Below are positions 3,618 through 25,566 of a DNA stretch of 32,000 bases, in pieces. Source of the DNA: Acaryochloris marina MBIC11017 (GTDB lineage Bacteria > Cyanobacteriota > Cyanobacteriia > Thermosynechococcales > Thermosynechococcaceae); assembly GCF_000018105.1 (NCBI RefSeq), contig NC_009933.1, positions 88,694 through 120,693 of the forward strand, written 5' to 3'. The position numbers and the translations under genes were made by a program. Below the pieces are notes generated by a model that had not been told where the DNA came from, searched no databases, and saw only the letters and a program-made list of their open reading frames with translations. Numbering within the stretch: the first letter of the stretch is position 1; each line of letters opens with the position of its first letter.

Positions 3618-3647
3618 TTGCACCTTCAAAGCCATCTTACCTATGTT
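3618..3647 (+). promoter_or_regulatory. Recurrent promoter-like motif P1 (TTGCAC-N18-TATGTT)
   Basis: aaatTTGCACcttcaaagccatcttaccTATGTTtc. It ends 32 nt before the ATG at 3680. It is one of six motif copies with identical 18-nt spacing. Confidence 0.6.
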
Positions 3648-3679
3648 TCTATCGTCCCCCCATCGGAGATTGAATCGTC

Positions 3680-4336
3680 ATGCAATCCCCCTTCCTCCAA
3701 CACACTCGGCACTATGCCCATAAATACGGACCTCAATGGTCTGCTCCAGTCCTCCTCGTCATCCTCACCCTCTGCCCCGTTTTTCTGCCATTAAATCCAG
3801 GCACCCAAATCGCCTGGTTAGAAATCATGGCACTGGTCTGGTCCACCGCCCTCTTCCTGCATCTCTATCAACTCCTCAATATTCAAACCAAGCTGGGCCT
3901 CTACCTCTTCTTCTCCGGGATGATTGCCTTGGTTCCCTCTATGGTGAAAGCCCAAAACGTCGGCAATGCCCCTTCCAGTGCCTGTAACTCCGGCTTCTTC
4001 CTGATCGGCCCCATGCTCGGAGCCGTGGATACTTCCTTGGGCTGGTTTCTGGGTGGCGTCCTCGCTTACTCCCTTTGCGCCTTTATGATTGCCTTGATGA
4101 TTGTCTTCTTCCTTGTCGTCATCGTCGGTTTAGTGATGGCTGGGGCAGAATCCCACAACAGCAAACGCACCCTGTTTGAAGTCCTCTCCCAATATCTGAA
4201 CGTGATCATCACCATGATGGTGATCGCCTCATTGGTGACCGTCTTTAACCTGCAATTGAGTAATAACGGCAACGCCGCTCCTATCCCCGTCGGTGGACAG
4301 AATCAGCCCCAAGGCGCGACCTCTGTGTTGAACTAG
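3680..4336 (+). CDS. Polytopic membrane protein; candidate VirB2/TrbC-like pilin precursor
   Basis: 218 aa with several TM helices. A possible leader cleavage site is VKA/QNVG. It is followed by ACNSGFFLIGPMLGA, which resembles the VirB2 segment ICTFILGPFGQ, and by two hydrophobic helices. It sits immediately upstream of VirB4. Confidence 0.5.
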   Translation: MQSPFLQHTRHYAHKYGPQWSAPVLLVILTLCPVFLPLNPGTQIAWLEIMALVWSTALFLHLYQLLNIQTKLGLYLFFSGMIALVPSMVKAQNVGNAPSSACNSGFFLIGPMLGAVDTSLGWFLGGVLAYSLCAFMIALMIVFFLVVIVGLVMAGAESHNSKRTLFEVLSQYLNVIITMMVIASLVTVFNLQLSNNGNAAPIPVGGQNQPQGATSVLN

Positions 4337-4347
4337 GAGGACATTAC

Positions 4348-7300
4348 ATGACCCAGACCGAACAGATTGAAAAAGAACTGCGCTACGGCAAAATCAACCC
4401 CTACATCGGCCCCACTCAATTCCAAGTCCTAAGTGGACAGCAGATTATCACCCTAGCGGCCAGTGGCTGCATCTGCTTTATCCTCGGCTTCTCCATCGGC
4501 TGGTTTATGGCTGTATTCCTCTGGTTAGGAATCTTTGTCCTCACTGTGTTGGCCTTGGGCAAAGACTACTCCCGCATCTTTGCCCGCATGAGCAAACAGC
4601 GACGGTACTACAGTGACCGTCCGAACTACCAAGTCAAGGGAGGAGTCCCCCTGATGGTGATTGAACTACCTGAACCCTTCAAACTCAGTCAGCTTTTCCG
4701 CCGACAGACTAAGCAGAAAGCCTTGAAGAAAATAGAGCCTGAATTTGACCTCAGAGCCTATGGAGAAATGCTCCTCGGTGAAGACATCGGCTTCTATCTT
4801 GTCCATCAAGACAAGCATGACCGAGCCATGCTCATTTTTGGCTTCACCCTAAAAGGGATTGACCCCACCCTGTCAGAGCAAGATGCAATGGACAGATTGC
4901 AGACCATTGTCATGGCCCTCCAGAAAATTCCTGGCATCGAACTCAAATTCTTCTGGGACGTGGAAGGTTCTGCTGATGCAGTCCTCCTTCATCAACATGA
5001 TCTCGTCACCCACAACGATCTAGATCTTCTCAGTGAAAAGCTGATCAAAAGTGAGGCTCAAGTCGCCGTTGACCTCGCCGCAGAAGGTAAACTTGTCCAT
5101 TCCGTCATCCGTGTCTATGCCAAGTATCGCCTCAGCTTAGCCGATGACTATGCCGTCAAAGAAGACCGCTTAGATAAACTCCTCGCCCATACCCAGCCCC
5201 TAGTCGGCACCTTCCAAGAATATCTCAACCCCCAACCCGAAGGCTTTAGCTCCAAACAAGCCTGGGAGAAAGTCTTAGACCGGGCCTATCAAGCCGGGTA
5301 TATCCCCACCGTCAAAGCCTTGACTCAAATGGGCGTCAAACCCCAGCCTATGAGCAAAGAAGACCTGTGGGCCATCGACTGGGAAGACACCCATGCAGAA
5401 CCCGCTGACCCCTGTCCTCAATCGATTACCTACAGTGAAGCGGGCCTGTCTCCCTTTAATGAAGATCAGCCTCTGCCCTATCACATCCTCGGAGAACTGT
5501 TCAGCCCCGAGCGAGGCTTACCCGCCGTTCCCACCCCCTACCTCTACACCCTCTATCACCCCATCAAGGATCAATGGGCTGCTCTCGTCAAAATCAACCA
5601 GCTTAGTACCTACAACAAAATCGATAACTTCCTCTCTATTGGTTACATGAAATTCCTCCTCCAAGCCCTAGAGGGATTTCATGGCTATCGCCTGATCTCA
5701 GAAATCACCCAGATTGAACCTGACTCCCGCCTGAAGCTCGTCAACTCCGCCATCAAAGAACGCAACCGCAAAGCCATCGATGCTCAACTCCTGCACAGCA
5801 CCCGCAACGTCCAGGCAGAGACGGATGTGAATGAACTCGTCGATGCCTCCCGTGAACTTAGTTCCGGTCGCTGGCCCCTCAAAGTCAGCCTCGGAATCTG
5901 GGTCTATCGAGCTGACAAAGCCAGCCTTACCGCTGCCGTTCAAGACCTGATTCGCCGACTGCCCACCAGCAAAACCGAGCAAGTCAGCAATCACCTGATG
6001 ACTCATTGGATCTCCAGTCATCCCTTCCACTGGCAAAGCTTGTTCTCCAAACCCCAACTGCGGCGAGAAGAATACCAATGCAATCAGGGGGTTCCCTTGA
6101 TGCCCCTAGTCCATCCCCAAACCATCGATAAACAGGGTATCCCCTTTGTCTCTCGCGGCGTTGCCATTCCTGTCCATCTCAACACAGCCTTAAAGAAGAA
6201 TCTGATAGCCATCTTTGGACCCATGGGAGTGGGTAAATCCGTATTGATGAACCGGATGATCCTAGAGAACATCATCCACCGCATCTTTACCGTCGTGATT
6301 GATGTCCCCCCTGGAAACGGCAAGAGTACCTATCAGCCGTTTTTGAAGCAGCTTCAGGCCATCAATGTTGCTGCAGCCTACTTCAATATCAAAGAACACA
6401 TCATCAACGTCCTCGCTGAAATCGATACAAGCTGGGCAGGCGATCTCCTCAGTGTCCAACTCCTGAAGAAAATCAAGCAAAACCACCTCAGTCTCCTGCG
6501 GGCCTTAGTCCTAGGAGATGACCTCGACCATCCCCTCTACAAAACCATCAAGTCTGTCCTGGCATTGAGCTATCAAGACTGGCGGGCCTTATCGGAGATT
6601 GATCAACGCTATCGCATCGCCAAAGCCGCTGCCTTTGGGTCTGAGCCATCCCAACGAATGCCTATCCTCCAAGACTTCGTAGATTACTTTCCCCAGTGGG
6701 TGAGACAGTACAAACAAGACAAAGACTGTGAGGATTTGGAACTGCAAGCCATCGCCATGATCCGCACGGAACTGGAAGCCGTCCTCACTACGGATCTAGG
6801 AGCTTCCATCAATGGCATCAACACTTTTAACTTCGACCTCCAAACCCTCGTCATTGGCCTGACGGACCTGCAAGACCCCCAAGAGAGCGTCATCTATTCC
6901 ATGGCTGCGATTAACTTGATGGAGCTGCAATCGTTCCGCTATCCTCGCTCCGCCATCTTTGGCGATGAAATCTCCACCACCTTTAAGTACCGCTCCATCT
7001 CCATCCGCTTCGCTGAGATCTGCACGAAGGGAAGGAAAGAAGCCAAGAACGTGGTTATTGCTGGAACTGAAGAGAACACCCTCGTTCAGTCAGAAGGAGG
7101 CCGAGATATCCTTAACAACCTGGATGCTGTCTTCTATGGACATTGCAATCCCACTGCCGTTGAGAATGCCTCTAAGCATCTGCGCCTCAAGCCTGAAGTC
7201 CTCTCCAAATATGTCCGAGCTGAATATGCCCCCAACCTCGCGGAACTCTGCACCTCCTGGTATCTGCGGAAAGGGAATCAACACTATGAACTGCTGTTCT

Positions 7301-7473
7301 ACACCTCAGCCCTGATGATTGCCCTGCTCTGTACCCAACCTGAAGAAACTGCAGCCAGGGACCGGATCCTGGCTCTCTATCCTGACAATCCCCTCCAGGG
7401 CTATATCAAATTTGGGCATCTGCTGAAACGGGCTTACAAACTCAACCTACCCCTGTCTCATATCGGAGCCTAA
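4348..7473 (+). CDS. virB4: VirB4/TrbE-family T4SS ATPase with N-terminal VirB3-like two-TM module
   Basis: 1041 aa. The SD sequence AGGAGG lies 7 nt upstream of the ATG. Two N-terminal TM helices (IITLAASGCICFILGFSIGWFMAVFLWLGIFVLTVLAL). Walker A is IFGPMGVGKSVL (about 6211..6240). The Walker B-like motif is SAIFGDEIST. The VirB4 motif is GRKEAKNVVIAGTE. Confidence 0.9.
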   Translation: MTQTEQIEKELRYGKINPYIGPTQFQVLSGQQIITLAASGCICFILGFSIGWFMAVFLWLGIFVLTVLALGKDYSRIFARMSKQRRYYSDRPNYQVKGGVPLMVIELPEPFKLSQLFRRQTKQKALKKIEPEFDLRAYGEMLLGEDIGFYLVHQDKHDRAMLIFGFTLKGIDPTLSEQDAMDRLQTIVMALQKIPGIELKFFWDVEGSADAVLLHQHDLVTHNDLDLLSEKLIKSEAQVAVDLAAEGKLVHSVIRVYAKYRLSLADDYAVKEDRLDKLLAHTQPLVGTFQEYLNPQPEGFSSKQAWEKVLDRAYQAGYIPTVKALTQMGVKPQPMSKEDLWAIDWEDTHAEPADPCPQSITYSEAGLSPFNEDQPLPYHILGELFSPERGLPAVPTPYLYTLYHPIKDQWAALVKINQLSTYNKIDNFLSIGYMKFLLQALEGFHGYRLISEITQIEPDSRLKLVNSAIKERNRKAIDAQLLHSTRNVQAETDVNELVDASRELSSGRWPLKVSLGIWVYRADKASLTAAVQDLIRRLPTSKTEQVSNHLMTHWISSHPFHWQSLFSKPQLRREEYQCNQGVPLMPLVHPQTIDKQGIPFVSRGVAIPVHLNTALKKNLIAIFGPMGVGKSVLMNRMILENIIHRIFTVVIDVPPGNGKSTYQPFLKQLQAINVAAAYFNIKEHIINVLAEIDTSWAGDLLSVQLLKKIKQNHLSLLRALVLGDDLDHPLYKTIKSVLALSYQDWRALSEIDQRYRIAKAAAFGSEPSQRMPILQDFVDYFPQWVRQYKQDKDCEDLELQAIAMIRTELEAVLTTDLGASINGINTFNFDLQTLVIGLTDLQDPQESVIYSMAAINLMELQSFRYPRSAIFGDEISTTFKYRSISIRFAEICTKGRKEAKNVVIAGTEENTLVQSEGGRDILNNLDAVFYGHCNPTAVENASKHLRLKPEVLSKYVRAEYAPNLAELCTSWYLRKGNQHYELLFYTSALMIALLCTQPEETAARDRILALYPDNPLQGYIKFGHLLKRAYKLNLPLSHIGA

Positions 7474-7476
7474 GTC

Positions 7477-8622
7477 ATGAACCGTAACCAAGCTGTTCTC
7501 TTGTCCCTGATCATTGTTTTTTCTAGCCCCCAGCTTACCCAAGCCCAAGTCTTCTCTGATGACATAACCCTACCGAAGAATGCCCCCACCTTCCCATCGG
7601 GTAGTCCCAGTACCACAGGGGATGTCAGTGTAACCCAGGATAATCCCTTTGACGATAGCCCTAAACCAAACTTCCTCAAAGATATCTTCTTGGGTCCGAG
7701 CAACAATAGACCGATTCATTCCAGCACCTTGAAGCTGTTCGATATTCTCGGAAAAGCCCAGAAAGGCTTAAAGAGCTACAAGTTTGCTGAACAGGTCTAT
7801 AAGGGCATTACGGGGAAAAACGCTAACAGCATCACCGATGGAGTATTTGGAATTCTAGAGCAGTACGGCATTATTGACCCCCAGAAAGCCACCACTGCCT
7901 CAAATCGCTCCACCCCCATCCTGATTGGTCAAGGGAATCAAGGTCCCGCCTATGCCACGGCTGGCTCAATCGGAGCCTTAAAGCTGGAACCCAAAGAACC
8001 TTATGAATGGCGGGTCAAAGCCTTAAACGAAAACATCGTCTACAAAAACGCCATCCAAAAGACCGGGGACTTCGTGTACTCCCCAGAAGCTCAAGAGATC
8101 CTCAAAGTCCAAGATCAAGTCGCCGCTGATGCCAGAGACGCTGCCGCTGCCGCCGCTCAAGGGGGGCTAGAATCCGTCCTCGCCTCTACCCAAGTCAAAG
8201 ACCAGAGCATCTATGCCAGTACCGTTGTCGGTGAATATGGCACCTCCGCTCAAAGCGCCAAATCCACCCAAGCCGTCAACAAACTTGAGACGAAGCAAAA
8301 CACCGAGATTGCCAACATCTTGGCGGGCAATGCCTTTCAACTGAATGCCATCAACGAATCAATGGTCCGCAACACTTCAGCCTTGGGCAATATCGTCACC
8401 ACCCAATCCATCCTCGTAGACAAACAGACCGTTTCTCAATATCTAGATGCCGCTCAACTGCGACAAAACGGTCAGATATTTACCACCCTCAACAACCACT
8501 ATTCCTATGAAAAGCGCAAGGATATGTATCAACACCTGGCCGCAGCCGACACCAGTAACCTGCTTCATTTCCCAAACTTGGTGGAACCTCAGCCAAATCC
8601 TTCAGGACAAACGCAACCGTAG
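7477..8622 (+). CDS. Secreted helical protein; possible VirB5/TrbJ-like T4SS component
   Basis: 381 aa. The start is 3 nt after the VirB4 stop. Signal peptide MNRNQAVLLSLIIVFSSPQLTQA. The C-terminal half is Ala/Gln-rich and predicted helical. The assignment rests on position and topology only. Confidence 0.55.
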   Translation: MNRNQAVLLSLIIVFSSPQLTQAQVFSDDITLPKNAPTFPSGSPSTTGDVSVTQDNPFDDSPKPNFLKDIFLGPSNNRPIHSSTLKLFDILGKAQKGLKSYKFAEQVYKGITGKNANSITDGVFGILEQYGIIDPQKATTASNRSTPILIGQGNQGPAYATAGSIGALKLEPKEPYEWRVKALNENIVYKNAIQKTGDFVYSPEAQEILKVQDQVAADARDAAAAAAQGGLESVLASTQVKDQSIYASTVVGEYGTSAQSAKSTQAVNKLETKQNTEIANILAGNAFQLNAINESMVRNTSALGNIVTTQSILVDKQTVSQYLDAAQLRQNGQIFTTLNNHYSYEKRKDMYQHLAAADTSNLLHFPNLVEPQPNPSGQTQP

Positions 8623-9925
8623 GATAGCCATCGCTCTGGTCTTGGGGGTGATCATCGTCCTCTATCAAGCGACCCATGCCCATGCGGATTTTGCCGAAGA
8701 CCTGATCAGCGATTTAGAACCCTCCGTTGCCCATGACGCATTTTGGGATGACCTCTGGAACGCCACCTTTGACCGCTCCACGGGTATTAGTGGTGATACC
8801 CAAAGAATTGCCTTTGGAGCTGTGGGTACAGTTGTCCGATGGGTGACCCTGATTGCCTTATTCGTGGTCCTTCTCCATTACGGGTCGGGGATGATGTCCA
8901 GCGGCACCAGCTTGCGAAAAGGCAATGAGTTCACCATTAAAAGTGTCTTCCCCGTCGTGGTCATCCTCGCCCTCCTCGCCAATCAGTTTGCTGGGGTCCA
9001 TGCCGTGGGGATGTTCGTCAATCAGGCCCGCTTAGGGATTACGGGAGAAGCCTATGCTCAATCTGAGTTTGCCACCACCTTCCGCAGTGCGATTAAGGAT
9101 GCCTATTTCTCAGAGAAGTATCGAGAGAATGTGGCCTTTCGCGCCAAGCAATGCAACCAGATTGAGACCCCCATCACCACCATTCCCTCCTTAGAAGAAC
9201 CCACGAATCCCGAGACGCCCCTCACGGATGAGCAGCGTCAGTACTACAAGAAGGTTCGGTGTATTCAGTCGATGGTGGACTATATCAAAACCCTGCAAGC
9301 CAAAGTCGAGGCTGAATGTGCCGATGGCTGTGTCGGTACAAGGGTGGGTATCGTCAAAGACTTGAAGAGGTACGGGGTCCAAGGTGTGCCTGCGATTGTG
9401 GCGGAAAACCTGGATACCTTCGTCATCCCCATTCAAAAACTAGGAGAACTCGCGGCAGATGCCGCTAAGCATGGGGCACAGGAGACCTACCGCCTAATCT
9501 TCCGAGCCATTCAATGGGCCTGGACCTCGTTTTTGAATATGGGGTTCTATCTGACGGCAGTCGGCGCACCGATTACCTATGCCATTTCCCTGATGCCCAC
9601 CAAGCGACATTTTCTCTTTGATTTGAACCTGTTCTCCCTGCTGATGTTTTCCCTAGCGGAGTTTGCCAATATCTTCTGCATTGGAATCGTGGCCCTGATG
9701 CTGCAACGACCCACCCTAGTTGACTTGGGCGGGTATATCTTCCCTTTGACCTATGGATTGCTCGCCCCCTTGGTGTCCGGTTCAATCTTCCTCGGTGGGT
9801 TTAAGGCCGCTGCTAGTTTTCGAGGGGGTGCCTTGGGTGTTGCCAGTGCAGCGGGGGGCATTGCAGGGGGCATTGCCACCTCAGCGATGATTTCAGCCCG
9901 GAACCGCCGAGAGCAATATTACTAA
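8447..9925 (+). CDS. Polytopic membrane protein, VirB6/TrbL-like topology (start uncertain)
   Basis: An N-terminal signal-anchor (KRNRRIAIALVLGVIIVLYQATHAHA) is followed by at least 5 TM helices and a Gly/Ala-rich tail. The in-frame ATGs at 8447 and 8507 overlap the upstream gene by 176 and 116 nt. No canonical start lies nearer the signal-anchor. Confidence 0.6.
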   Translation: MPLNCDKTVRYLPPSTTTIPMKSARICINTWPQPTPVTCFISQTWWNLSQILQDKRNRRIAIALVLGVIIVLYQATHAHADFAEDLISDLEPSVAHDAFWDDLWNATFDRSTGISGDTQRIAFGAVGTVVRWVTLIALFVVLLHYGSGMMSSGTSLRKGNEFTIKSVFPVVVILALLANQFAGVHAVGMFVNQARLGITGEAYAQSEFATTFRSAIKDAYFSEKYRENVAFRAKQCNQIETPITTIPSLEEPTNPETPLTDEQRQYYKKVRCIQSMVDYIKTLQAKVEAECADGCVGTRVGIVKDLKRYGVQGVPAIVAENLDTFVIPIQKLGELAADAAKHGAQETYRLIFRAIQWAWTSFLNMGFYLTAVGAPITYAISLMPTKRHFLFDLNLFSLLMFSLAEFANIFCIGIVALMLQRPTLVDLGGYIFPLTYGLLAPLVSGSIFLGGFKAAASFRGGALGVASAAGGIAGGIATSAMISARNRREQYY

Positions 9926-9931
9926 ACTAAT

Positions 9932-9961
9932 TTGCTGCTCCTTCCTCATTCTGTCTATGTT
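9932..9961 (+). promoter_or_regulatory. Recurrent promoter-like motif P2 (weaker -35)
   Basis: aatTTGCTGctccttcctcattctgtcTATGTTca, with the 18-nt spacer. It ends 39 nt before the ATG at 10001. Confidence 0.45.
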
Positions 9962-10000
9962 CACACTAAGCCCATGAGGTCATTGAGAGGTCAATAAAAA

Positions 10001-10474
10001 ATGCCCTTATATCTCACCCTAATCGTCGTCTTTGTTGCTTTTGCCATTCTGCTGATGGTCATTCGAGGTGGAATGGCTGAACTCAATCCCCTATCAGGCT
10101 TGATGGCCTGTGTTGTCTTGACGCTGTTTGCCGCTTATCACCGCATCTTTGCTGGGGCAGACCAGCTTTCGGGGTTAGATTCTTTTTTCACCTTGGGTTG
10201 TGGGTTAATTACCTGTCAGCTCTTTATCCCTGAGTTTCGATTCTGGTGGTCGGACTTCCGGTTTATCTATGGCATGACCGTGCTGTTCTATTTCGCCTTC
10301 TGCTGGACCTTTGACCATATATACATCGTTTGGTTTTGGTTTACGGGATTTGTGCTGTTTCTACTGTTGGTGCAATTCCTTTTTGGAGTGGCGAGTTCTG
10401 GTGGTGGGAGAAGGATTAGAGGGGTTTGTGATCCTGATTCCGAGTTTGATTATTCGATCTACGACGAGTGGTAA
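10001..10474 (+). CDS. Small integral membrane protein (about 4 TM), unknown function
   Basis: 157 aa, strongly hydrophobic and Phe/Trp-rich. It is the first gene after motif P2. Confidence 0.65.
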   Translation: MPLYLTLIVVFVAFAILLMVIRGGMAELNPLSGLMACVVLTLFAAYHRIFAGADQLSGLDSFFTLGCGLITCQLFIPEFRFWWSDFRFIYGMTVLFYFAFCWTFDHIYIVWFWFTGFVLFLLLVQFLFGVASSGGGRRIRGVCDPDSEFDYSIYDEW

Positions 10475-10480
10475 TGAACG

Positions 10481-11158
10481 ATGACTAAGAAACTCTCTCG
10501 CTTCCTCCCCCTACTGGTGGTATCCGCCTTACTGCTGAATATCCTCGTATGCTTTTCCTGGTTTACTCAAGGAGCTAGAGCGCAAGCCCCCTCTCAGGTG
10601 TATATCCAAACCGACTCTGGGTTGGTGGTCAAAGGTAAGCCCGTGGATCCCCTCTACCGGAGTGATGAGGTGGTGATGCGGTTTGCCCAGGAATTTGTCT
10701 CCGTGGCCTACACCTGGCCGATGAATGGCGAAGGTCAAAATGAAGGCAAGCTAATCTATCCCCTGCCCATGTACACCCAAGCTTTCAAAATCCATCCTGA
10801 TATCCGGGCAGAGTGGTTAGGGCGTCAGCATATCACCTATGCCAAAGCCAAAGACCCTTTTGCTAACTATGTGGGCAAGCCCCAGCATACAAAGACGACC
10901 ATTACGGGAGCCAAGATTGAGCGTATGGACCCAGAGGCCCATGAATGGGATGTGCGCTTGTATGCCACCCAATACCGCTTTGATGGTCAAAACAACCTGA
11001 TCTTTAACCCCGTCAAGGTCAACAAGATATTGACCCTGAGAGCCGTCCAAGGCTTTCGACCCAACTGGCAAATTGCCGATACGGACCTGGGCCGCATGAT
11101 TGATGATGCCCTGCATTCAGAGCTACTGATTACCAACATTGTGGATCTGCCCACCTAG
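10481..11158 (+). CDS. Bitopic membrane protein; candidate VirB8/TrbF-like (NTF2-like) T4SS component
   Basis: 225 aa. N-terminal anchor FLPLLVVSALLLNILVCFSWF followed by a ~190-aa soluble domain. The size, topology and gene order fit VirB8, but I recognise no diagnostic motif. Confidence 0.5.
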   Translation: MTKKLSRFLPLLVVSALLLNILVCFSWFTQGARAQAPSQVYIQTDSGLVVKGKPVDPLYRSDEVVMRFAQEFVSVAYTWPMNGEGQNEGKLIYPLPMYTQAFKIHPDIRAEWLGRQHITYAKAKDPFANYVGKPQHTKTTITGAKIERMDPEAHEWDVRLYATQYRFDGQNNLIFNPVKVNKILTLRAVQGFRPNWQIADTDLGRMIDDALHSELLITNIVDLPT

Positions 11159-11191
11159 AACAACCCAGAGAGCAAAGACAAGGAGCGAGAC

Positions 11192-12544
11192 ATGCCGACA
11201 GACAAACGCCAGGTCGAGGAAGCCAAAGCGGCATTGTTGGATGACCCGGAACTCAATGAACTCTTAGAAGAGAACAAGATTGCTGAAGGTCGGCCCATCA
11301 ACGATCTAGAGAAACTGGTCGATCCAGGGGATAAAGTCAAACATCCCTACTATCTCCAGCCCTGGTTCAGGATTGGGAGTATCGCCATCCCCCTGATCAT
11401 CCTGGGATTTGTGGGCTATAAGATTTGGGGGCCAAAACCCCCGGTGGTGATGGCCTTGGGGGACAAGGATAAGCAGATTATCGAGCTGACGGAAAAACTT
11501 CAGCAGTCTGAATTAGAGAAAGCCCAGCTTACCCAAGACAATATGGGATTGACTCAGGCCGCAGAGTTAGAGCCATTTCAACAGCGACAAAAGCGGCTCA
11601 AGCAGCAGGCTCAGAAAGCTCGACAAGCCAAACAAAAGAAGCCTGTGCCTGTGGGGGGTAAACCCGTTCAGCGCCAGAATACCGTTAGCCTTCCTCGTCG
11701 GCTCTATCGCAGTCCATCTCCCAAAAGCAGCTTTACCCCAGCTAACCCCAGCCCCTCCTTGCTTGCGAAGGGTCCCTCATTGAGTGAATGTGTGGGCTAT
11801 GTGGAGCGGAATATTAACGTTCCAGGCTGTAAACGCTATCAGATTAGCCAGAAACCCCAGTCATCACCTCAGACCAATTCCATTGTCAAAAACCCAACAG
11901 TCCCTCGTCCCGCCTATACGCCAAGGCCCCAGACTAAGCCTGTTAAGTTGGCCTTTGCCAGTAAGAGCAAGTCCAAACCTCGGAAAAAAGTAACGCCTGA
12001 CTATCAGGTGAACTTTATGGCAGGTGAGATTCAAACGGTGGATCAGTTTGAGGCGGAGTTCTATGGTGCAGGCCAGAGCGCTACTGCACCGACGCGCACC
12101 TCAATGAAGGCCAAAGTGATTGATCATGTGGAATGGTTATCCCCTCAAGAGGCTCAACAGATGGTCATCCCTTTGAAAATTACCAGTGGTCCCCACAAAG
12201 GTCAGATGGCTGAGGCCAAGATTCAGCAGATGAATGGCTTGCAGTTCACGGCTCATGTGGTCAGCATCAATGGTCAAGCGATTGAACCAGGGACGATGGA
12301 GGTCAGGCGCAAGAATACCAAGTACCTGAGAGCGCAACTGAAGCGTCAGGGAGGAGAGTCTTTTGGGGATAGAGTGATGGGGACGGTAGCTGCAATAGGT
12401 GGGGAGATTGCCACGGATCAGTTAGTGGATGTGCGGGGTGGGAGTCACATTTCGAGGCTCGTATCTAATCCTCAGCGTAGGACCAGGGAAGTGACGCAGT
12501 ACTGGCGGTTCGATGGAGAGGTTGAGTTGGTGCCAGTGGGTTGA
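11192..12544 (+). CDS. Bitopic membrane protein with coiled-coil, Pro-rich linker and C-terminal beta domain; VirB10/TrbI-like architecture
   Basis: 450 aa with an AAGGAG SD sequence upstream. Acidic N-terminus, TM segment IGSIAIPLIILGFVGYKIW, coiled-coil, a long Pro/Lys/Ser-rich linker and a C-terminal ~150-aa beta-rich domain. Confidence 0.55.
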   Translation: MPTDKRQVEEAKAALLDDPELNELLEENKIAEGRPINDLEKLVDPGDKVKHPYYLQPWFRIGSIAIPLIILGFVGYKIWGPKPPVVMALGDKDKQIIELTEKLQQSELEKAQLTQDNMGLTQAAELEPFQQRQKRLKQQAQKARQAKQKKPVPVGGKPVQRQNTVSLPRRLYRSPSPKSSFTPANPSPSLLAKGPSLSECVGYVERNINVPGCKRYQISQKPQSSPQTNSIVKNPTVPRPAYTPRPQTKPVKLAFASKSKSKPRKKVTPDYQVNFMAGEIQTVDQFEAEFYGAGQSATAPTRTSMKAKVIDHVEWLSPQEAQQMVIPLKITSGPHKGQMAEAKIQQMNGLQFTAHVVSINGQAIEPGTMEVRRKNTKYLRAQLKRQGGESFGDRVMGTVAAIGGEIATDQLVDVRGGSHISRLVSNPQRRTREVTQYWRFDGEVELVPVG

Positions 12545-13054: not shown

Positions 13055-13395
13055 ATTTCGATAAATTAACGACTTAAATTAATTTTGGAAATGAAATTAC
13101 AGTTTGCAGCTTTATAATTTGAGTAACTAATTTATCATATGCTTTTGGTGAAATATCAATTTCAAGAATTTAATTTATGCGAATGCTTATATTTCTTCAC
13201 ATTAGCAACTCTCATATTACTTTTTTATACAATTAAAAAAATCATAAACTACAGCTTTTGTATGCCTCTTAGAATATTCGTTTCATGATGTGCTATTAGC
13301 TCAATTTATGCCACGATCTGGCCTAGAATTTTAGTCATGAACCATATCGTTAGCTTGATGTTGAAAGAGGTCTTGTCCCTGTTATATCAAACGAT

Positions 13396-13531
13396 TTTCA
13401 CCGCATAAGTTATCATGCCTATGTTTCCTTTGTAGCCCATCTACAGGGGATTCCTGTTTGTAACCCTCACTGTTCTCAAGCGATGCCCTACCCTCATCGC
13501 CTCCATCCTTATTGCAGCCTTTCAGACCCTT
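13396..13531 (+). pseudogene. Decayed duplicate of the promoter motif plus first ~26 codons of the hydrolase gene at 16596
   Basis: 13416..13531 aligns with 16558..16673: 116 bp with about 8 mismatches. It carries its own TTTCAC-N18-TATGTT motif. Both candidate start codons are mutated (TTG to CTG, GTG to GTA). The reading frame runs directly into AT-rich DNA. Confidence 0.85.
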
Positions 13532-16537: not shown

Positions 16538-16567
16538 TTGCACCTCAAAGGTCATCCTGCCTATGTT
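16538..16567 (+). promoter_or_regulatory. Recurrent promoter-like motif P3
   Basis: ccaTTTGCACctcaaaggtcatcctgccTATGTTtc. It ends 28 nt before the TTG start at 16596. Confidence 0.6.
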
Positions 16568-16595
16568 TCCTCTGTAGCCCATCTACAGGGGATTC

Positions 16596-19500
16596 TTGTT
16601 TGTGACCCTCCATGTTCTCAAGCGATGCCCTACCCTCATCGCCTCCATCCTGATTGCAGCCTCTCAGACTCTTCCCGTCTGGAGTCAAACTCAACAAGTC
16701 GGGTACTATCCCGCCCTAGAACTCGCCAATGTTCCTGGGTTAATCTACGAACCACCCCCGGAAGCTCAAGGGGTTTCCTTCTCCAGTCTCCCCGGTGCCA
16801 GCTCTCCCGGTTGGGTTGTCGTGAATGACCCCAACCTCAACTATGACCCCAACCGGGCTTGGCCCGCTGGAGCCACACCAGATCGGATCATCAAGTTTGG
16901 AGACTTAAAGCAAAACCCTCAGTTTGCAGGTTTTACTAAACACAGTCTCAGAGACTTTAACAATGCCATTGGCACCGACATCGGAGGAGTGCCCATCGGC
17001 CAGATTGAACTAGTCAATGGCCTCAACCTTGAACAGGTTAAAGACATTTACAACAACGGCGATATCAAACTCAAAGACTCAGCTCCCCTATTCCAAGCCG
17101 TCGTCGGTGTCGTTCTAGATCCCACAGGTGCCCAGAAGCAGCTTCAACGCAATGCCCTGAGTACGGGCAAGAAAGCTCTGATTAACGAACTGAATAAAAA
17201 CCCAGCCCTCAAAGATATCCCCTTTGAAGACCTCCTAGATGGCAATTGGCAAGGGGTACTCCAAGAAGGTGAACAGGTCTTACTTCGAGAAATTGGCAAT
17301 GACATTCCCGCAGAGCTGCGCCGCTTACCCGTGGGTGCTCTCACCATTGAAGTCATAGAAGGCAACTGGAAATCCGCCCGACAACGCGCCCAGAACTATG
17401 CCATTGATGAGATCCAAAACTTCACCCTCAATGAAATCATCCAAGAATTCCCCGAACTCAAGCAAGTGCCCATCGGTGGCATCGTCCATATCGCCAATCA
17501 GCCCCTAGACCAAGCCCTTCCTCAACTGGCAGATATGGCTTTAGAGCAATTCCCCGGCATTGAAGACAAGATCCTAGGCTCCGTCCCTGGCCTCAGTGAT
17601 ACGGCCCTTGGGTCTATCGTCGCTCCCGTCGTCTTCAACCTTCTAGCAGGGGATATATTTGGTCGGTTTGATATTGCCCATAGTGGTCAAGATGGGCCAG
17701 AAGAACATTATGGTAGGCCGATCAGTGGGGGCACCCCTGATGCAAAATTCAAGCCAGAACATGGGATTAAGAGTGCCACGAGCAGGAGCAAGCGACCAGA
17801 GCGAGGGTTCCCTCGGTTTGAGATGGCCCCTCTTGAACCAGGAACTACGATACTTGGTGATCCACTTCTAGGAAAGGAATGGATGAGTCGGGATCAGGAA
17901 GTGCCAGGGTGTAAAGGGTTTCTCTGTCTGTTTGGCAATAAGGAACGTGCAGGTATCAAACCCTTTGGCAATGGCTCTCTCACTAAGTTCAGCCTGGGGA
18001 ATATCACGGAATATGATGACAAACCCGCAGAAGCCAGACTATGGATTGACTTTCAGATCTGTGTCACCATCCTATTTGAGAAGCACTGCACAGCTCATAT
18101 CTTTAGTTTCAAAACACCATGGAAAGTCAAGGTGGGGGGCATCTTCCCGATCCTCGCCCGTCGTAGAGTCCAAGATTACTTTCCAGGGATTAACGAGAAG
18201 GCCAGAACCATTGACTTCTGCCAAGTCCCTGACTTCTTAGGGGGAACGACAACATCGGGGAATAGTCCCCCACCCCAAGGCGAAGTAGAAGCCTTTGAAC
18301 AATTCAAGTCAGATTCAGCCGCCATAGGCTTAAGCTTTGACCGAGATCCCCAAGGTCGCTTACTGGTGAATGAAGAGAATGAGGATGCGACCATAACCTG
18401 GGTTGCTCAGGAAGCAGGAACCTATGGATTTGAAGTGAATCAAGCAGACAATGGCACGATAACCTTTAATTACACGGGTGTTACACATCCATCGCCATCC
18501 CAAAGTGCAACCACCAGTAATGATGGTTTTTCGGGTGTTTTCCCAGGGACACTTCAACACCAACAGAGCAACAGTGGTTTGCAATCTAAAGCCCAATCCA
18601 ATGGCGTTCAGCTCCAGCCGATTGATGGGTCAAGTGGTGCCCCACAATTGACGGGCATACCGGGTAGACCAGGGGCAGTCAGTAGCCAGGGAATTACAGC
18701 CACCAAACCCTCAGATCCTCAACATCGTCTGAGACAGTATCTCGCCCGCATTGCCTTGGGTGAATCATCTGGGGGAACGGATATTGACGCCCATCCGAAT
18801 ACAGGAGCGTATGGGGAATATCAGTTTATCCCTGAGACGAGGCAAATAATTCTGGAGCGTTATGGTCTGGATGCTTGGTCAACGAATAAAGCCGAACGCG
18901 ATCAGGCGGCAGTGGCCTTGATCCAAGCCTTTGGTGATGAGATTGGGACGGACATTCTCGGCTTGATTGAGGCGGGTGAGTTTGAGCAAGCGGATCAGTT
19001 GCTCGGTCAACATGTTTACAGTCATGCTGGGAATGTACTTCGGTATGGTCAGTTCACCTCTTTACCGGGTGGAGCTGAACAGCATGAGATATGGAAAGAC
19101 CCTGCAATTCTGTCTCAATATGGTCCGAATGGGAATGCAGGGCAGAATCCACTGCTGGCAGCAATCAATACGAATTCACAGCGGTGTAATCCTGCGTTGT
19201 TGGCGAGCAATGGAAGTGTCAATTTTCAGCAAGGATCGGGGGTGGCGTCTGGGAAACTGGCTAACCCTTTAGCTGACTCATCTTACGTTGTTACAAGTAA
19301 TTTTGGATGGCGTTACGATCCTTTTACAGGGGACACTGACTGGCATTCTGGAATTGATTTAGCCCATTCCGCTGGCACCCCATTTAGGGCTGCAGATGGT
19401 GGAACAGTTGTAATGAGTCAATGGAATGGAGATTATGGGAATTTCATTCTGATTGACCACGGCAACGGGTTGGCGACTTGGTATGCTCACAATCAAACCA

Positions 19501-19685: not shown

Positions 19686-19687
19686 TC

Positions 19688-20053
19688 ATGAAAAAACTAC
19701 TATTTGCGGTAGCATTTCTGTTGTTAAATGCATTACCATCCCAGGCTTCACCCCAGGCCGAGGCTTGCCTCAATAAAACCATTACTCAGACAGAATCTAG
19801 CGTTTCATCGGCTCAGTTAGTTGCGTCTATCGAGCATGATGGAAGCCAGTACCATTACATAGAGGGGGCATCAAGTAACCCCAGGATTCCTGATGCAAGA
19901 ATTTTTTTGAGAACGGATCATCAAGGCGGATGTGAAGAGATTATGTCTTACCTAGTTGGTTCCGCTCCATCTGAAAAAGTTTTCCGGGAAAGGCTTGGCA
20001 GTGAAGTTTTCCTTAAGCTTCAGCAGCAGGCCAAGGCATCAAAGTCGAATTGA
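19688..20053 (+). CDS. Small secreted protein, unknown function
   Basis: 121 aa. The start is 3 nt after the hydrolase stop. Signal peptide MKKLLFAVAFLLLNALPSQA. Confidence 0.6.
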   Translation: MKKLLFAVAFLLLNALPSQASPQAEACLNKTITQTESSVSSAQLVASIEHDGSQYHYIEGASSNPRIPDARIFLRTDHQGGCEEIMSYLVGSAPSEKVFRERLGSEVFLKLQQQAKASKSN

Positions 20054-20143
20054 TAAACCTAATATCGGGTGCGACTACTATAAAGGTATGGGCAAAGAAG
20101 TTACCAATAAATTTATCCAAATCTTCCTCTAACAAGACTGAAT

Positions 20144-20173
20144 TTGCACCCCACAATACAATCTACCTATGTT
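20144..20173 (+). promoter_or_regulatory. Recurrent promoter-like motif P4
   Basis: gaaTTTGCACcccacaatacaatctaccTATGTTcc. It ends 30 nt before the ATG at 20204. Confidence 0.6.
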
Positions 20174-20203
20174 CCTGTTAGCTCCACCTAGCAGGAATTT
20201 TTT

Positions 20204-22006
20204 ATGCCCCAACAAACCACGCAACCCGCACCAGAATACAGAGGGTTCCACAACATTCCCATCAACTATGGCTGGCTCACCGTAGGCTTTCTCAGCATCG
20301 TCTTTATCATCTGGCTCAGCACCCTCAATCGACGCAGAACTCAAATTCCAGAGGGAATGCCAAATGCCAGAGAAGCCACCCCCAAAGAAATCAAAGAAGG
20401 GTCCAACAAAGCCAGACTGATCCGAGCTGAGGGTGATATCGAGAAGTCCGCGATCCAACTCAACCCAGAAACAGGCATCACCCTTGGACCTATCAACCCC
20501 GGTGGCCTCGTCTCAGGCAAAAGCGGTGGGGGAAAAACGGAAAGCTTTGCCCTTCGCCTGATCGAATCCCTCGCGGAAGATGGAGCCTCCCTGCTGATCA
20601 GTGACATCAAAGGCGAACTCATGGAGAAAACCGCCGCCTATCTCCATGACCTCGGCTATGACATCCACTTTCTCGCCCCTGGCATCAAAGAAACCTCAAA
20701 GTACTCCGTAGAAAAACTCCCCTTCTCCGGTGGCCTTAACCTCCTCGACCTGATCGCCAATGATGAAGACCTCGCAGGCACCCTTGAGCTGACCCGAGGC
20801 ATCAACATCAACGCCGCCGAGAACTATGAACGCAGACATCAATACTTCGGTCCCCAGTCCGACCTTCTGCAACAGTCCATGATGCTCGGAGCCAAAAGCA
20901 GTGAATATGCCGACATGCTGATGGTCTGGGAACTGATGGGCCTCAACAACATCGCCGAACGCTTAGCCGCAGCCAAAGACAACGACAAGATGGGGAAAGG
21001 ACTCCCCTACTTTATGACTCATCTGAGCCGAGGACTCAGAACCGTCGCTCATAGCTCCAGTAGTGCGAATCCTGGTCCCACCATTCAATCCACCGCTAGT
21101 CAGAACTGGGTTCAATTCCTCGACCCTGAGATCGCCAGATGCATGACCAAGACCACCATCCCCTTGGACCTCACGGGCAAACAAGCCATCTTCTTCCGTA
21201 TCAATGAAGACCAGCTAGAAGCCACCAAGACCTATCTCGCCGCTGCCATCCATATGCTGGTGAAGCGCAATATCAGGTATACCCGTAAACGTCAGAACAA
21301 CCTCGGCGTCATCATCGAAGAAGCCAGTTTCACCTTATTCCCAGATGCGAAGAAATGGTCTGCCCTAGGACGGCAAAATGGCCTGTTGCTGTGGATGATT
21401 TATCAGCAAGAAGAACAGATGCAGGAACTCTATGGCGAGAAGCGATGGGAAAGCACTGCTGCCAACCTGCCCTCCCGCATCTATATGAATCAGGGGTCCT
21501 ACAAGAGCAATCAAGTCATTGCCAGCCGCTTAGGGAAGAAAACCATCATCAGCACCACGGAAAATGAGTCCTTTGGTTCCAACCGTTCTCGGAGTCGCAA
21601 TGACAGCTTTCAACAAGTGGACTTGATGACCGCAGACCGCTTAGACGCCATGAAGAAACCAGGGCAGTGCATCATCGTCGATGCCTCCACCAATGGTCAC
21701 CCGATTATCTATGAGAAGAAACAGCTTCCCTATGACAAGAACAGCTCCCAGGCCAAGATTAGGGAGCAGTGCAAAGACGCATGGCGAGAGAACATCCTTC
21801 CCAGCCTGCAAGAGGAACATCAGAAGCACTTTGGGATGATCAATGTCCAAGTGGCAATGGAGAACAGAGCCGCAGCCGCAGAGGATCTACTCCCACCTTC
21901 AGAGTATTACGCCATTGAAGAAGAAGCCGCTGAGATTGACGCAGAAGAAGCCACTGAAGACACCACAGATATAGACGAACAGGAGGATATTCAAGATGCA
22001 GCATAG
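20204..22006 (+). CDS. virD4: Type IV coupling protein (VirD4/TraG family)
   Basis: 600 aa. N-terminal TM segment GWLTVGFLSIVFIIWLSTL. Walker A is SGKSGGGKTES (about 20517..20546). The TraG/VirD4 signature is LGVIIEEASF...GRQNGLLLWMIYQQEEQMQELYGEK. The C-terminal tail is highly acidic. Confidence 0.9.
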   Translation: MPQQTTQPAPEYRGFHNIPINYGWLTVGFLSIVFIIWLSTLNRRRTQIPEGMPNAREATPKEIKEGSNKARLIRAEGDIEKSAIQLNPETGITLGPINPGGLVSGKSGGGKTESFALRLIESLAEDGASLLISDIKGELMEKTAAYLHDLGYDIHFLAPGIKETSKYSVEKLPFSGGLNLLDLIANDEDLAGTLELTRGININAAENYERRHQYFGPQSDLLQQSMMLGAKSSEYADMLMVWELMGLNNIAERLAAAKDNDKMGKGLPYFMTHLSRGLRTVAHSSSSANPGPTIQSTASQNWVQFLDPEIARCMTKTTIPLDLTGKQAIFFRINEDQLEATKTYLAAAIHMLVKRNIRYTRKRQNNLGVIIEEASFTLFPDAKKWSALGRQNGLLLWMIYQQEEQMQELYGEKRWESTAANLPSRIYMNQGSYKSNQVIASRLGKKTIISTTENESFGSNRSRSRNDSFQQVDLMTADRLDAMKKPGQCIIVDASTNGHPIIYEKKQLPYDKNSSQAKIREQCKDAWRENILPSLQEEHQKHFGMINVQVAMENRAAAAEDLLPPSEYYAIEEEAAEIDAEEATEDTTDIDEQEDIQDAA

Positions 22007-22433
22007 TCAAGACCAGACCTTAGAGCGGGATGCAGAGAAAGGAATGCACCTGGCCGAGGAAGGGGTAGAAAAAGCAGCCAGACTGACGGCTGAGACTCTA
22101 CGAATACTTAGGGCACAACTCGCTAAGTACAACAATCGAGTGTCCATTAAATTTGAGTCACGAGCAGATGATATTGCTAACGTCAAAGCAGGGATGCAAG
22201 GAGGACTCAAGGGTGTACAGCTCAGGCAGATTGTCAGGGCGGGTGACTCGATCAAGGAAGTGGCTCAGCGAGCCCAGTCAGCGGAGAAAGTGAAGCTGTA
22301 TGAGGACCGGGTCATGTCCAGGGCACAACATGAGTTGAATCGAGAGAAGGTGGAACATCGTCGTTCCCAGCAGTCGCAGCAGTCCCAGAAACAGAGTCAA
22401 AGGCAGTCTCAGTCTCAGAATCTGGGATTGTAG
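21996..22433 (+). CDS. Hypothetical helical protein with Gln/Ser-rich tail, translationally coupled to the coupling protein
   Basis: 145 aa. Its ATG overlaps the virD4 stop by 11 nt. The tail is RRSQQSQQSQKQSQRQSQSQNLGL. Confidence 0.6.
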   Translation: MQHSQDQTLERDAEKGMHLAEEGVEKAARLTAETLRILRAQLAKYNNRVSIKFESRADDIANVKAGMQGGLKGVQLRQIVRAGDSIKEVAQRAQSAEKVKLYEDRVMSRAQHELNREKVEHRRSQQSQQSQKQSQRQSQSQNLGL

Positions 22434-24615: not shown

Positions 24616-24810
24616 ATGAATATTCTTAAAAAGATAATTGGATTTGGTTTATTAATTTATAGCGTTCCAAGAGTTGTGCATGTAATGAAGCAGGTTATCG
24701 AGAGTGGTGGTGATCCTCAAGCAATTGGAGCCGCTACCGCGTCCGTTTTATTTGTCGCCATTGGCCTTTGGCTACTGTTCTCAAAGGATAAGGATAGAAA
24801 CCCTTCATGA
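24616..24810 (+). CDS. Small two-TM membrane protein
   Basis: 64 aa with two hydrophobic helices separated by ESGGDPQ. Confidence 0.4.
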   Translation: MNILKKIIGFGLLIYSVPRVVHVMKQVIESGGDPQAIGAATASVLFVAIGLWLLFSKDKDRNPS

Positions 24811-24951
24811 AGGAAGGTTGTGACTACCCCTCAGAATTCTCATAAAACCCTTATAGCCTTCTCAGTCAATTACAGGGAATCACCCAGTTCGTCATCATTC
24901 CAGCTTCAGACACCCCTCGTACATTGAAGTCATTGAAGTTGGAGAACAAAC

Positions 24952-25284
24952 ATGAAACGCATTCATCAAACCGCTTTTTCAGTCTTAACAAGCTTTACCG
25001 TCCTCAGTATTGGCCTTGCTTCCTCCGCCCTAGCTGAAACCATCACCGTGACCCGTGGCCCCAATGGTGCAGCCCATCAGGTCAAAGTAGACCGTATTCC
25101 TCAAGATGCTCAAGTACGATCTGAAACTCCTACCACCGGATTTCCTAACATTGTCACCCGTGGCTCTCATGGTGCGGCTCACATCGCTAAAACGGACTCA
25201 GACCGTGACACAACTGCTCAGTCTTCGGTAAGACGTCAAGTTATCACTCGTGGCCCGAATGGTGCAGCCTACATTGCCAATTAG
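24952..25284 (+). CDS. Small secreted protein with three TRG(P/S)xGAA(H/Y) repeats
   Basis: 110 aa with signal peptide ...LSIGLASSALA. The repeats are VTRGPNGAAHQVKVD, VTRGSHGAAHIAKTD and ITRGPNGAAYIAN. The gene has the GC content of the native cluster. Confidence 0.6.
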   Translation: MKRIHQTAFSVLTSFTVLSIGLASSALAETITVTRGPNGAAHQVKVDRIPQDAQVRSETPTTGFPNIVTRGSHGAAHIAKTDSDRDTTAQSSVRRQVITRGPNGAAYIAN

Positions 25285-25413
25285 GTCATGAGAGCAACAA
25301 CGAGCTGACCCAGAGTCCTTCATTCCCCCCAAGAGCTGATTGCAAGTTCACCTCACGTTGCAGTCAGCTCTTCTCTTCGTCACAATCTCCCTTTTTTCTC
25401 CAACAGACCCCTT

Positions 25414-25452
25414 ACGACTGAGGGGACAACTCCTTAGTCGTGGGTTTTTCTT
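25414..25452 (+). terminator. Rho-independent terminator
   Basis: Stem ACGACTGAGG/CCTTAGTCGT with one G-U pair, an 8-nt loop, then GGGTTTTTCTTT. A second long hairpin, AGAGCTGATTGCAA/TTGCAGTCAGCTCT, lies at 25332..25371. Confidence 0.6.
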
Positions 25453-25536
25453 TAAACCTTCATTACACAGATCCAAATATCCTCGCACCTTAAGTACAAA
25501 AGGCTGAAACCTCAAACACAGTTCCCAAATAACGAT

Positions 25537-25566
25537 TTGTCCCTCCCAGGTCATCTTGCCTATGTT
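25537..25566 (+). promoter_or_regulatory. Recurrent promoter-like motif P5
   Basis: cgaTTTGTCCctcccaggtcatcttgccTATGTTtc. It ends 28 nt before the ATG at 25595. Confidence 0.55.

Follow-up and report, generated by a model that had tools for sequence, protein, structure and literature searches.

A recurrent promoter-like motif heads the backbone modules of Acaryochloris conjugative plasmids and co-occurs with a plasmid-encoded sigma factor

Introduction

How might a conjugative plasmid keep its transfer genes under common control when cargo DNA has split them into separate blocks? The question is raised by a 32,000-nucleotide (nt) stretch of Acaryochloris marina MBIC11017 DNA (contig NC_009933.1, positions 88,694 to 120,693; hereafter the window), in which one bipartite, promoter-like motif recurs ahead of successive blocks of type IV secretion system (T4SS) genes and an orphan sigma-70-family factor, here called sigma1, is encoded on the same DNA. 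The window is conjugative plasmid DNA of a cyanobacterium, and its closest record in PLSDB is A. marina MBIC10699 pREC4 (89% DNA identity), followed by A. marina S15 unnamed15 and Acaryochloris 'Moss Beach' pMB06 (84% each). A protein identical to the product of the 218-aa gene is encoded on an A. marina contig of 120,693 bp. Large Acaryochloris plasmids account for about one-fifth of the genome, and adaptive traits such as re-acquired phycocyanin genes are encoded on them (PMC11633204). Hardly any work has been done on conjugation in cyanobacteria; the authors who defined the cyanobacterial T4SS class reported neither experimental nor computational work on such systems (PMC4027160), and our literature search found no described regulator or promoter for cyanobacterial T4SS plasmids and no paper on the motif or on the role of the sigma1 family.

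An earlier note on this DNA, made from the sequence alone, proposed that the motif is a dedicated regulon promoter read by the sigma factor of the element and that it divides the T4SS into five co-regulated modules. As an alternative, it suggested that the conserved block is an operator for a small XRE protein encoded nearby. Here we weigh these proposals, together with three further explanations, against the motif copies in the window and in related plasmids.

Results

Motif copies head gene blocks in the window

The composite pattern TTT-N21-CTATGTT matched the window six times, all on the + strand, vs 0.09 matches expected from shuffled sequences. The hexamer TATGTT alone was not enriched (17 matches vs 15.5 expected), so the signal resides in the composite. 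A position matrix built solely from 11 non-orthologous sites of other plasmids recovered exactly these six sites, which scored 24.5 to 51.4 bits; the next best position in the window scored 6.0, and the best score among 200 shuffles was 16.5. Every copy is intergenic and points in the same direction as the downstream gene.

These are the six copies described in the earlier note, whose account of them was borne out in position (Table 1), hexamers, 18-nt spacer and strand, as were the distances from the end of TATGTT to the start codon, which are 32, 39, 28, 30 and 28 nt in the five intact copies. The conservation that it reported beyond the hexamers is also genuine and covers ATTTGCACC, CAT and TGCCTATGTTyC. 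The copy at 13396 had been called a decayed duplicate, and local alignment agrees, with a 155-nt match of 13377-13531 to 16519-16673 that includes the first ~78 nt of the M23-peptidase gene, the start codon being lost. The count itself needs correction, however, since a diverged copy at 2672-2702 (copy A) brings the window total to seven. Copy A starts directly after the stop codon of the XRE gene and ends 29 nt before the ATG at 2732, and its orthologues in related plasmids carry an intact motif. Orthologues of copy B were found in L001, L002, L003, L015, L022 and L026 (L numbers denote loci fetched from relatives), and copy C likewise has orthologues in relatives. Motif copies appear to mark recombination or insertion boundaries.

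Motif architecture resembles that of a sigma-70-family promoter

From the window and its relatives we collected ~44 sites, a few of which are counted twice where fetched loci overlap. Their consensus is rATTTGCACC-tCAAAGGy-CAT-CyTG-CC-TATGTT-yC, an element of ~37 nt with a -35-like TTGCAC and a -10-like TAnnnT, in which information is concentrated in ATTTGC, CAT and TGCCTATGTTTC. The remainder of the spacer differs between paralogous site classes, with the coupling-protein class reading CCCACAATACAATCTG. The hexamer occurs as TATGTT, TACCCT, TATCCT, TACGTT, TACTCT and TATATT, so that TA and the final T are kept, with TATCAA in L022 as the single exception among the sites, and CC precedes the hexamer at every site. 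The spacer is 17 nt rather than 18 nt at both sites of the divergent contig L025. All ~44 sites are intergenic and co-oriented with the next gene, and the hexamer lies 28-34 nt from the start codon in 24 of the 36 sites that have a downstream open reading frame. Matrix scores were bimodal in every related locus, either at least 20 bits or below 9, and plasmids with 84-89% DNA identity, as well as more distant ones, retain the motif at orthologous positions. No conserved dyad was found in the motif; a small ACCT..AGGT dyad in the spacer is lost in classes C, E and F.

A generic sigma-70 scan does not list the motif sites, which match the Escherichia coli consensus at ~7 of 12 positions. Together with the conserved non-consensus bases, this weak match implies a specialised reader. 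Taken as a whole, the sites very probably represent a promoter of the sigma-70-family type. A Bacteroidetes-type promoter (TTTG / TAnnTTTG) was also considered and was dropped because the host is a cyanobacterium, and contig ends were rejected as a proxy for start sites: the L024 contig does start within the motif, but assemblies break at repeats.

Scans of 185,579 species genomes and of Joint Genome Institute (JGI) metagenomes with the strict motif pattern returned 5 and 3 single matches, respectively, in unrelated organisms, about the number expected by chance, and these had low matrix scores and no homology to the window; the same scans also missed expected Acaryochloris copies, perhaps because genomes are masked or missing, and so are uninformative on Acaryochloris chromosomes. 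Some variants are shared within a replicon. Every motif copy in L026 (8972, 9920, 16236, 18848) reads CCTAyCCTCT, and both copies in L025 (116, 969) read TAyCCT with the 17-nt spacer, which points to concerted evolution inside a replicon. Plasmid pREC4 mixes TATGTT and TAyCCT sites under one sigma factor.

The motif reaches beyond the T4SS in related plasmids

We scanned the complete plasmid pMB08 and most of pMB06. There, the motif also stands upstream of the MobF relaxase gene, of the ParM/StbA partition operon, of the gene adjoining an ArdC-like gene and of a gene within a small-gene block at the start of the pMB06 record. Judging by these positions, the motif marks a plasmid backbone regulon that extends beyond the T4SS. 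The earlier division into five T4SS modules needs correction on this point, and the window itself holds six modules.

The arrangement of sites follows the arrangement of the transfer genes. In a second plasmid group (pMB08, pMB04, pREC1 and one NIES-2412 contig), the T4SS forms a compact, uninterrupted operon whose VirB4 is 26-29% identical to that of the window, and the motif occurs once or twice, only at the operon head. In plasmids of the window type, where cargo splits the T4SS, there is one motif copy per fragment. Tandem A-site copies in relatives are flanked by remnants of the gene for the 287-amino-acid (aa) protein, comprising its C-terminal end and its signal peptide (L004 25320-25424, L005 18881-18985, L015 15790-15882, L014 17170-17268). 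We read these remnants as traces of repeated duplication of a unit made of the motif plus the 287-aa gene.

Presence of the motif coincides with that of sigma1

Full-length sigma1 homologues occur in 6 of 72,556 PLSDB plasmids, and BLAST with the 46-nt motif returned six PLSDB plasmids, identical to the sigma1-bearing six. Two more sigma1-bearing contigs, from A. marina NIES-2412, both carry the motif. The Acaryochloris T4SS plasmids L007 (S15 unnamed10) and L008 (pMB03) have no sigma1 and no motif (best matrix scores 8.9 and -0.8), and at least three further Acaryochloris T4SS plasmids gave no BLAST match to the motif. In a presence matrix of all window genes across ten replicons, sigma1 was the sole window gene that tracked the motif. 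The 287-aa protein, VirB4, the M23 peptidase and the coupling protein are equally distant from their window counterparts in motif-positive compact plasmids and in motif-negative plasmids, VirB4 identity in the latter being 26-31%. Two sigma1 clades and two T4SS types are represented, and the motif is kept in all four combinations, which argues against a single event of shared ancestry. The promoter and regulon part of the earlier proposal passed all of the sequence tests that we ran; the link to the sigma factor gains real support from the comparison of plasmids, as an association. With these data in hand, we somewhat favor sigma1 as the reader of the putative promoter.

We also searched L007 for an alternative recurrent promoter and found only a three-copy motif away from its T4SS. 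This motif, GCAA-N11-GGCGG-GGTATATTAyC (44243-44280, 46812-46849 and 46893-46930), lies upstream of small backbone genes and may be the signal of another plasmid-specific regulon. Because L007 and L008 hardly differ in their T4SS head regions, no footprint emerges from comparing them. Co-variation between sigma factor and motif was pursued through a sigma1 variant, P0009, which has W at the 433-equivalent position and shares its sample of origin with L026; their pairing is uncertain and no conclusion was drawn.

Sigma1 has primary-sigma-like recognition residues and a family-specific extension

Pfam places Sigma70_r2 at aa 40-103 of sigma1, Sigma70_r3 at aa 116-186 and Sigma70_r4 at aa 203-250. 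Alignments to SigA/RpoD structures begin at aa 18-31, and the protein is without region 1.1 or a long N-terminal part. This agrees with the earlier description of a 'group 3' factor, a label that must be read loosely, since sigma1 reached no curated group-3 subfamily score (TIGR02980, 103.6 bits against a cutoff of 234; TIGR02479, 92.9 against 189.6). Its best subfamily match was cyanobacterial RpoD, at 112.6 against a cutoff of 384.5; SigF was also among the best partial matches, and only the superfamily model TIGR02937 was passed. The sigma1 family comprises ~20 proteins among 5.8 billion clusters, and an exact look-up of the sigma1 protein sequence found no record.

Across 19 homologues, the region 4.2 helix S-x-E-R-I/V-R-Q-L (ERIRQ) is invariant and resembles that of primary sigma factors; as a -35-reading helix it fits the invariant TTG of the motif. 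Residues F79, F87, S88, Y90, N44 and L47 are also conserved. We take these to be the pockets for the flipped -11 A and -7 T known from sigma-70 structures, in which case they fit TAnnnT.

The C-terminal extension of sigma1 is confined to the sigma1 family among 1.8 billion representatives. AlphaFold modelled the sigma domains well, and the extension scored below 50 in the predicted local distance difference test (pLDDT) except for a hydrophobic helix at 366-387, which at a guess could be a membrane anchor. The DNA encoding the extension (window 278-786, - strand) has a synonymous divergence (dS) of 0.2-0.4 vs saturated dS in the sigma domain. The ratio of nonsynonymous to synonymous divergence (dN/dS) is 0.5-0.8 in the extension vs ~0.15 in the sigma domain, the latter from the one comparison with unsaturated dS, and the reading frame of the extension is open in all 19 homologues. 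Recent recombination may account for this pattern, or else a nucleotide-level element that overlaps the 3' end of the open reading frame, for example a replication control for the adjacent CyRepA1 gene.

Could a host sigma factor read the motif?

Several observations weigh against sigma1 as the reader. Its conserved neighbor is the replication gene CyRepA1, with which it is syntenic in 8 of 8 related replicons examined, and not the T4SS, so the earlier remark that the sigma gene lies beside the transfer cluster does not hold as a conserved association. The tryptophan pair of region 2.3 is replaced in sigma1, and the two sigma1 clades have different region 2.4 sequences (KPIRTEIRQ vs PTLWSEVRD), although the -10 block of the motif is the same in both. 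Because host primary and group-2 sigmas share the recognition residues that sigma1 retains, its specificity cannot be read from its sequence. No motif above 9 bits was found upstream of sigma1 or of CyRepA1 in the fetched loci, and so there is no sign of autoregulation. The co-occurrence may come partly from shared backbone ancestry and recombination, the nine replicons not being independent. Lastly, the compensatory changes in hairpins that follow some of the sites (see below) would sit upstream of a +7 start site, which is awkward for a simple promoter.

Several of these points would suit a second explanation, in which the promoter is real but is read by host SigA or a group-2 sigma, its extra conservation stems from gene conversion or from a plasmid activator or repressor, and sigma1 serves replication or some other function. 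The pattern TTG-N17/18-TAnnnT is a general sigma-70-type architecture, the kept residues of sigma1 are those of a primary sigma, and the 287-aa remnants beside duplicated A sites show that copies spread by duplication and recombination. Set against this are the strict match in presence and absence between motif and sigma1, which includes T4SS plasmids of the same strains that are without both, and the poor fit to the sigma-70 consensus, where CAC, CC and GTT are conserved despite being non-consensus. Paralogous classes with diverged spacers nonetheless keep both blocks, which argues for selection rather than recent copying, and in the regions examined no other regulator gene tracks the motif. 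We consider reading by a host sigma possible but rather doubtful.

Hairpins follow the hexamer in three site classes

Classes A (287-aa gene), D (M23 peptidase) and E (coupling protein) have a stable hairpin that begins 0-2 nt past the hexamer, with z scores of -3.5 to -5.5; the 3' arm of this hairpin covers part of the Shine-Dalgarno sequence in two of them. Other site classes have a weak hairpin or none, and it is absent in C, H, I and J. Examples of compensatory changes are CCTGTTAG/CTAGCAGG, CCCGTTAG/CTAGCGGG and CCCATTAG/CTAATGGG; covariation is weak, however, as 45 of 500 and 32 of 500 shuffles reached the observed value.

These hairpins bring in a third explanation, that the motif is an RNA-level element within a long polycistronic transcript, acting in processing, antitermination or translational control. 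Strong structures directly after the hexamer, their few compensatory changes, 3' arms that overlap Shine-Dalgarno-like sequences and a tightly fixed distance to the start codon speak for such an element. The hairpins are missing from four classes, though, and there were no Rfam matches, while the conserved blocks have the geometry of a promoter with tolerance for 17 or 18 nt. Moreover, copies follow opposite-strand cargo (13-16 kb) or the terminator at 25411-25444, where no read-through is expected. We regard an RNA-level role for the motif as very unlikely.

The hairpins can be reconciled with a promoter. If transcription starts ~7 nt past the hexamer, the 5' arm is not transcribed from the motif promoter, and only read-through RNA folds and hides the ribosome-binding site. 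IS10 reportedly has a hairpin whose 5' arm precedes the native start, so that folding and silencing are confined to read-through transcripts (Davis, Simons and Kleckner, 1985). The hairpins here are similar in sequestering a ribosome-binding site with a 5' arm upstream of the start, as inferred from position and in three site classes only. The analogy suggests that the hairpins would insulate each module from outside transcription.

A variable regulator gene lies divergent from sigma1

The alternative raised in the earlier note was that the conserved block, or the inverted repeat that follows it, is an operator through which the XRE protein represses all modules. The XRE gene does lie between sigma1 and the first module, and homologues are present in 5 of the 9 motif-bearing replicons (the window, L001, L005, L014 and L015). 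Against this, no homologue was detected around sigma1 in the fetched regions of the other four (L002, L003, L004 and L006), the motif is without a conserved dyad, and the later inverted repeats differ between classes and are absent in several. The complete pMB08 sequence holds only a 19-aa XRE remnant, and pMB06 has a weak, distant helix-turn-helix match far from sigma1 (E 3e-5). An XRE operator at the motif is accordingly disfavored, and we judge it highly improbable. In L002, L003, L004 and L006, the slot divergent from sigma1 is filled by unrelated small genes that look like ribbon-helix-helix genes. A small regulator that varies while sigma1 and the motif stay constant fits better with a variable switch on sigma1 than with an operator at the motif, and the XRE protein is probably part of such a switch rather than the reader of the motif.

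The 5' leader of sigma1 points to a further layer of control. Its ACCUCA boxes could pair with UGAGGU, the complementary Shine-Dalgarno region that immediately precedes the start codon of sigma1. All nine replicons have this arrangement upstream of sigma1 (as a single copy in pMB08), and changes in its arms are compensatory (CCCTCT/AGAGGG vs CTCTCT/AGAGAG). The leader has no Rfam match and looks like a translational control element.

The remaining explanation, a selfish or neutral dispersed repeat such as a miniature mobile element with no regulatory role, is scarcely credible: the motif is multi-copy and lineage-restricted, with one clearly decaying duplicate, but it has no terminal inverted repeats or target duplications, all of its ~44 copies point the same way as the gene that follows, mostly at a constant distance from the start codon, and orthologous positions are retained between plasmids.

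Sigma fusions head compact T4SS operons

The compact T4SS operons of sister plasmids are headed by genes for proteins of 567-692 aa, annotated as 'sigma-70 family', in which an N-terminal sigma domain is joined through a hydrophobic segment to a domain like the 287-aa protein. The 287-aa protein is ~33% identical to the C-terminal half of the fusions in L004, L006 and L014 and ~25% identical in L007, and in pMB03 the sigma part and the 287-like part are adjacent separate genes. One conceivable reading, which we think unlikely, is that the secreted 287-aa protein works together with sigma1 as the two halves of a split signalling device across the envelope, in which a surface cue, such as contact with a recipient, frees or activates the sigma factor and fires all motif promoters.

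Gene content and surroundings of the window

The transfer-region genes with recognizable products are listed in Table 1; the window also encodes other genes that have no family match. The VirB4-like protein had 126 PLSDB matches, cyanobacterial in every genus among the matches listed. The MobF relaxase gene is present in relatives, outside the window, and relatives are typed MPF_T by MOB-suite. Searches of the window against Rfam at gathering thresholds and with a tRNA scan returned no matches. The open reading frames at 7477-8622 and 8447-9925 overlap by 176 nt, compared with 74-116 nt in annotated relatives, which is probably an issue of start-codon choice and not a frameshift.

Low-GC cargo interrupts the transfer genes at ~12.6-16.4 kb and 22.4-25.5 kb. 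GC content across 13-16 kb is 34-35%, and Pfam identifies lipase and alpha/beta-hydrolase genes there on the - strand; relatives carry different cargo at the same insertion place. The hairpin at 25411-25444 separates a low-GC cargo stretch from the module headed by copy F.

Genes for filamentous-haemagglutinin/TPS, CHAT-domain, Ser/Thr-kinase and NB-ARC/NACHT ATPase proteins form a conserved neighborhood adjoining the sigma1-CyRepA1 module. It was seen in L002, L004-L007, L014, L015 and L026, in the last of which it adjoins the transfer region, and thus also in the motif-negative plasmid L007.

Table 1. Coordinates of the features discussed; positions are those of the window except in the last four rows, which refer to loci from related plasmids.
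Feature	Position	Strand	Remarks
sigma1, orphan sigma-70-family factor, 423 aa	278..1549	-	Regions 2, 3 and 4 in aa ~20-255; C-terminal extension aa ~256-423
sigma1 5' leader	1576..1722	-	Two tandem ~35-nt stem-loops, each followed by ACCUCA; hairpin 1591-1626
XRE/HTH_26 regulator	2390..2671	+	Pfam HTH_26; divergent from sigma1
Motif copy A (seventh, diverged)	2672..2728	+	ATTTTGATC...CCCTACCCT; CCC-TACCCT, hexamer 2697-2702; hairpin 2705-2728
287-aa protein gene, first of transfer region	2732..3595	+	Signal-peptide-like N terminus; tblastn 33% identity, E 1e-23 to 1e-38, to C-terminal halves of sigma fusions
Motif copy B	3615..3649	+	TTGCAC/TATGTT; heads 3680..9925 (218-aa gene, VirB4-like ATPase, 381-aa and 492-aa genes)
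VirB4-like ATPase gene	4348..7473	+	Within unit headed by copy B
Motif copy C	9929..9963	+	Weakest -35, TTGCTG; heads 10001..12544 (157-aa, 225-aa and 450-aa genes)
Decayed D-site duplicate	13377..13531	+	Motif 13393-13427, TTTCAC/TATGTT; adjoins low-GC cargo insert
Motif copy D	16535-16569	+	TTGCAC/TATGTT; heads M23-peptidase gene and 19688..20053
D-site hairpin, 10 bp	16568-16592	+	-14 kcal/mol, z -4.4; 3' arm carries AGGGGA Shine-Dalgarno
M23-peptidase gene, 1029 aa	16596..19685	+	Headed by copy D
Motif copy E	20141-20175	+	TTGCAC/TATGTT; heads coupling protein gene and 21996..22433
E-site hairpin	20174-20195	+	Two compensatory pair changes among orthologues
Coupling protein (VirD4/TraG-like) gene	20204..22006	+	Pfam T4CP domains; headed by copy E
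Terminator-like hairpin and T run	25411..25444	+	15 pairs, 7 GC; just upstream of copy F
Motif copy F	25534..25568	+	-35 TTGTCC; heads 507-aa transfer-region gene 25595..27118; orthologues in L001-L003
Sigma-fusion gene, L004	25605-27305		
Sigma-fusion gene, L006	27127-28833	-	
Sigma-fusion gene, L014	17449-19155		
Sigma-fusion gene, L007	16179-18257		

Discussion

The mechanism that we propose is that the repeats are copies of a single dedicated promoter heading each backbone transcription unit, which in the window would be the 287-aa gene, the VirB4 block, the 157-aa block, the M23 hydrolase, the coupling protein and the 507-aa gene. RNA polymerase carrying the sigma1 of the plasmid would read the motif, and expression of sigma1 would activate all transfer and maintenance units of the backbone, also in plasmids whose T4SS is split by cargo. 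Sigma1 would in turn be gated by a variable, divergently encoded small repressor (XRE here, ribbon-helix-helix-like elsewhere), and anti-Shine-Dalgarno boxes in its structured 5' leader would mask its ribosome-binding site.

Element-encoded sigma factors with a promoter class of their own have precedents in SigN (ZpdN) of Bacillus subtilis plasmid pBS32, the TcdR/BotR/TetR/UviA group of clostridial plasmids and islands, and the phage factors SPO1 gp28 and T4 gp55. As in those cases, a mobile element here carries a sigma factor, and a recurrent putative promoter that departs from the host consensus heads the operons of the element, so that one gene would turn on a program spanning all modules. 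The putative targets are different, however, being conjugation, relaxase and partition genes of a cyanobacterial plasmid, and sigma1 itself differs in having region 3, a primary-like region 4.2 and a unique C-terminal extension. Autoregulation through the own promoter class is common in element-encoded sigma systems, whereas sigma1 has no autoregulatory copy of the motif.

Coordination of plasmid operons through one recurrent signal is also known from systems that do not rely on a dedicated sigma factor. In IncP plasmids (RK2/RP4), the repressors KorA and KorB bind palindromic operators and coordinate transfer, partition and replication-related operons. The motif resembles that regulon in being one signal repeated across plasmid backbone operons, but it lacks symmetry, is built with -35/-10 geometry and is found together with a sigma factor. 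AcaCD of IncC plasmids and SetCD of SXT/R391 are FlhDC-like activators that work with host sigma-70, and their boxes head each transfer operon. Here too, the same motif heads every transfer operon and a candidate master regulator is encoded on the element; unlike IncC and SXT/R391, the plasmids studied here yielded no FlhDC-like activator gene. The system therefore differs from the known ones in its host, its target genes, the subtype of its sigma factor, the absence of palindromic operators and the absence of an autoregulatory copy.

If the less probable split-device reading of sigma1 and the 287-aa protein were true, it would amount to a sigma-based one-component conjugation switch, and T4SS plasmids of the cyanobacterial type would have their first described regulatory circuit. 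If the link between sigma1 and the motif is true, one small gene and a ~37-nt sequence would define the transfer and maintenance program of an Acaryochloris plasmid family, giving a testable handle on when these plasmids transfer. The pair would also be an orthogonal sigma factor and promoter, potentially useful for cyanobacterial engineering, and would provide an example of a regulon that keeps a conjugation system working after cargo insertions have split its units.

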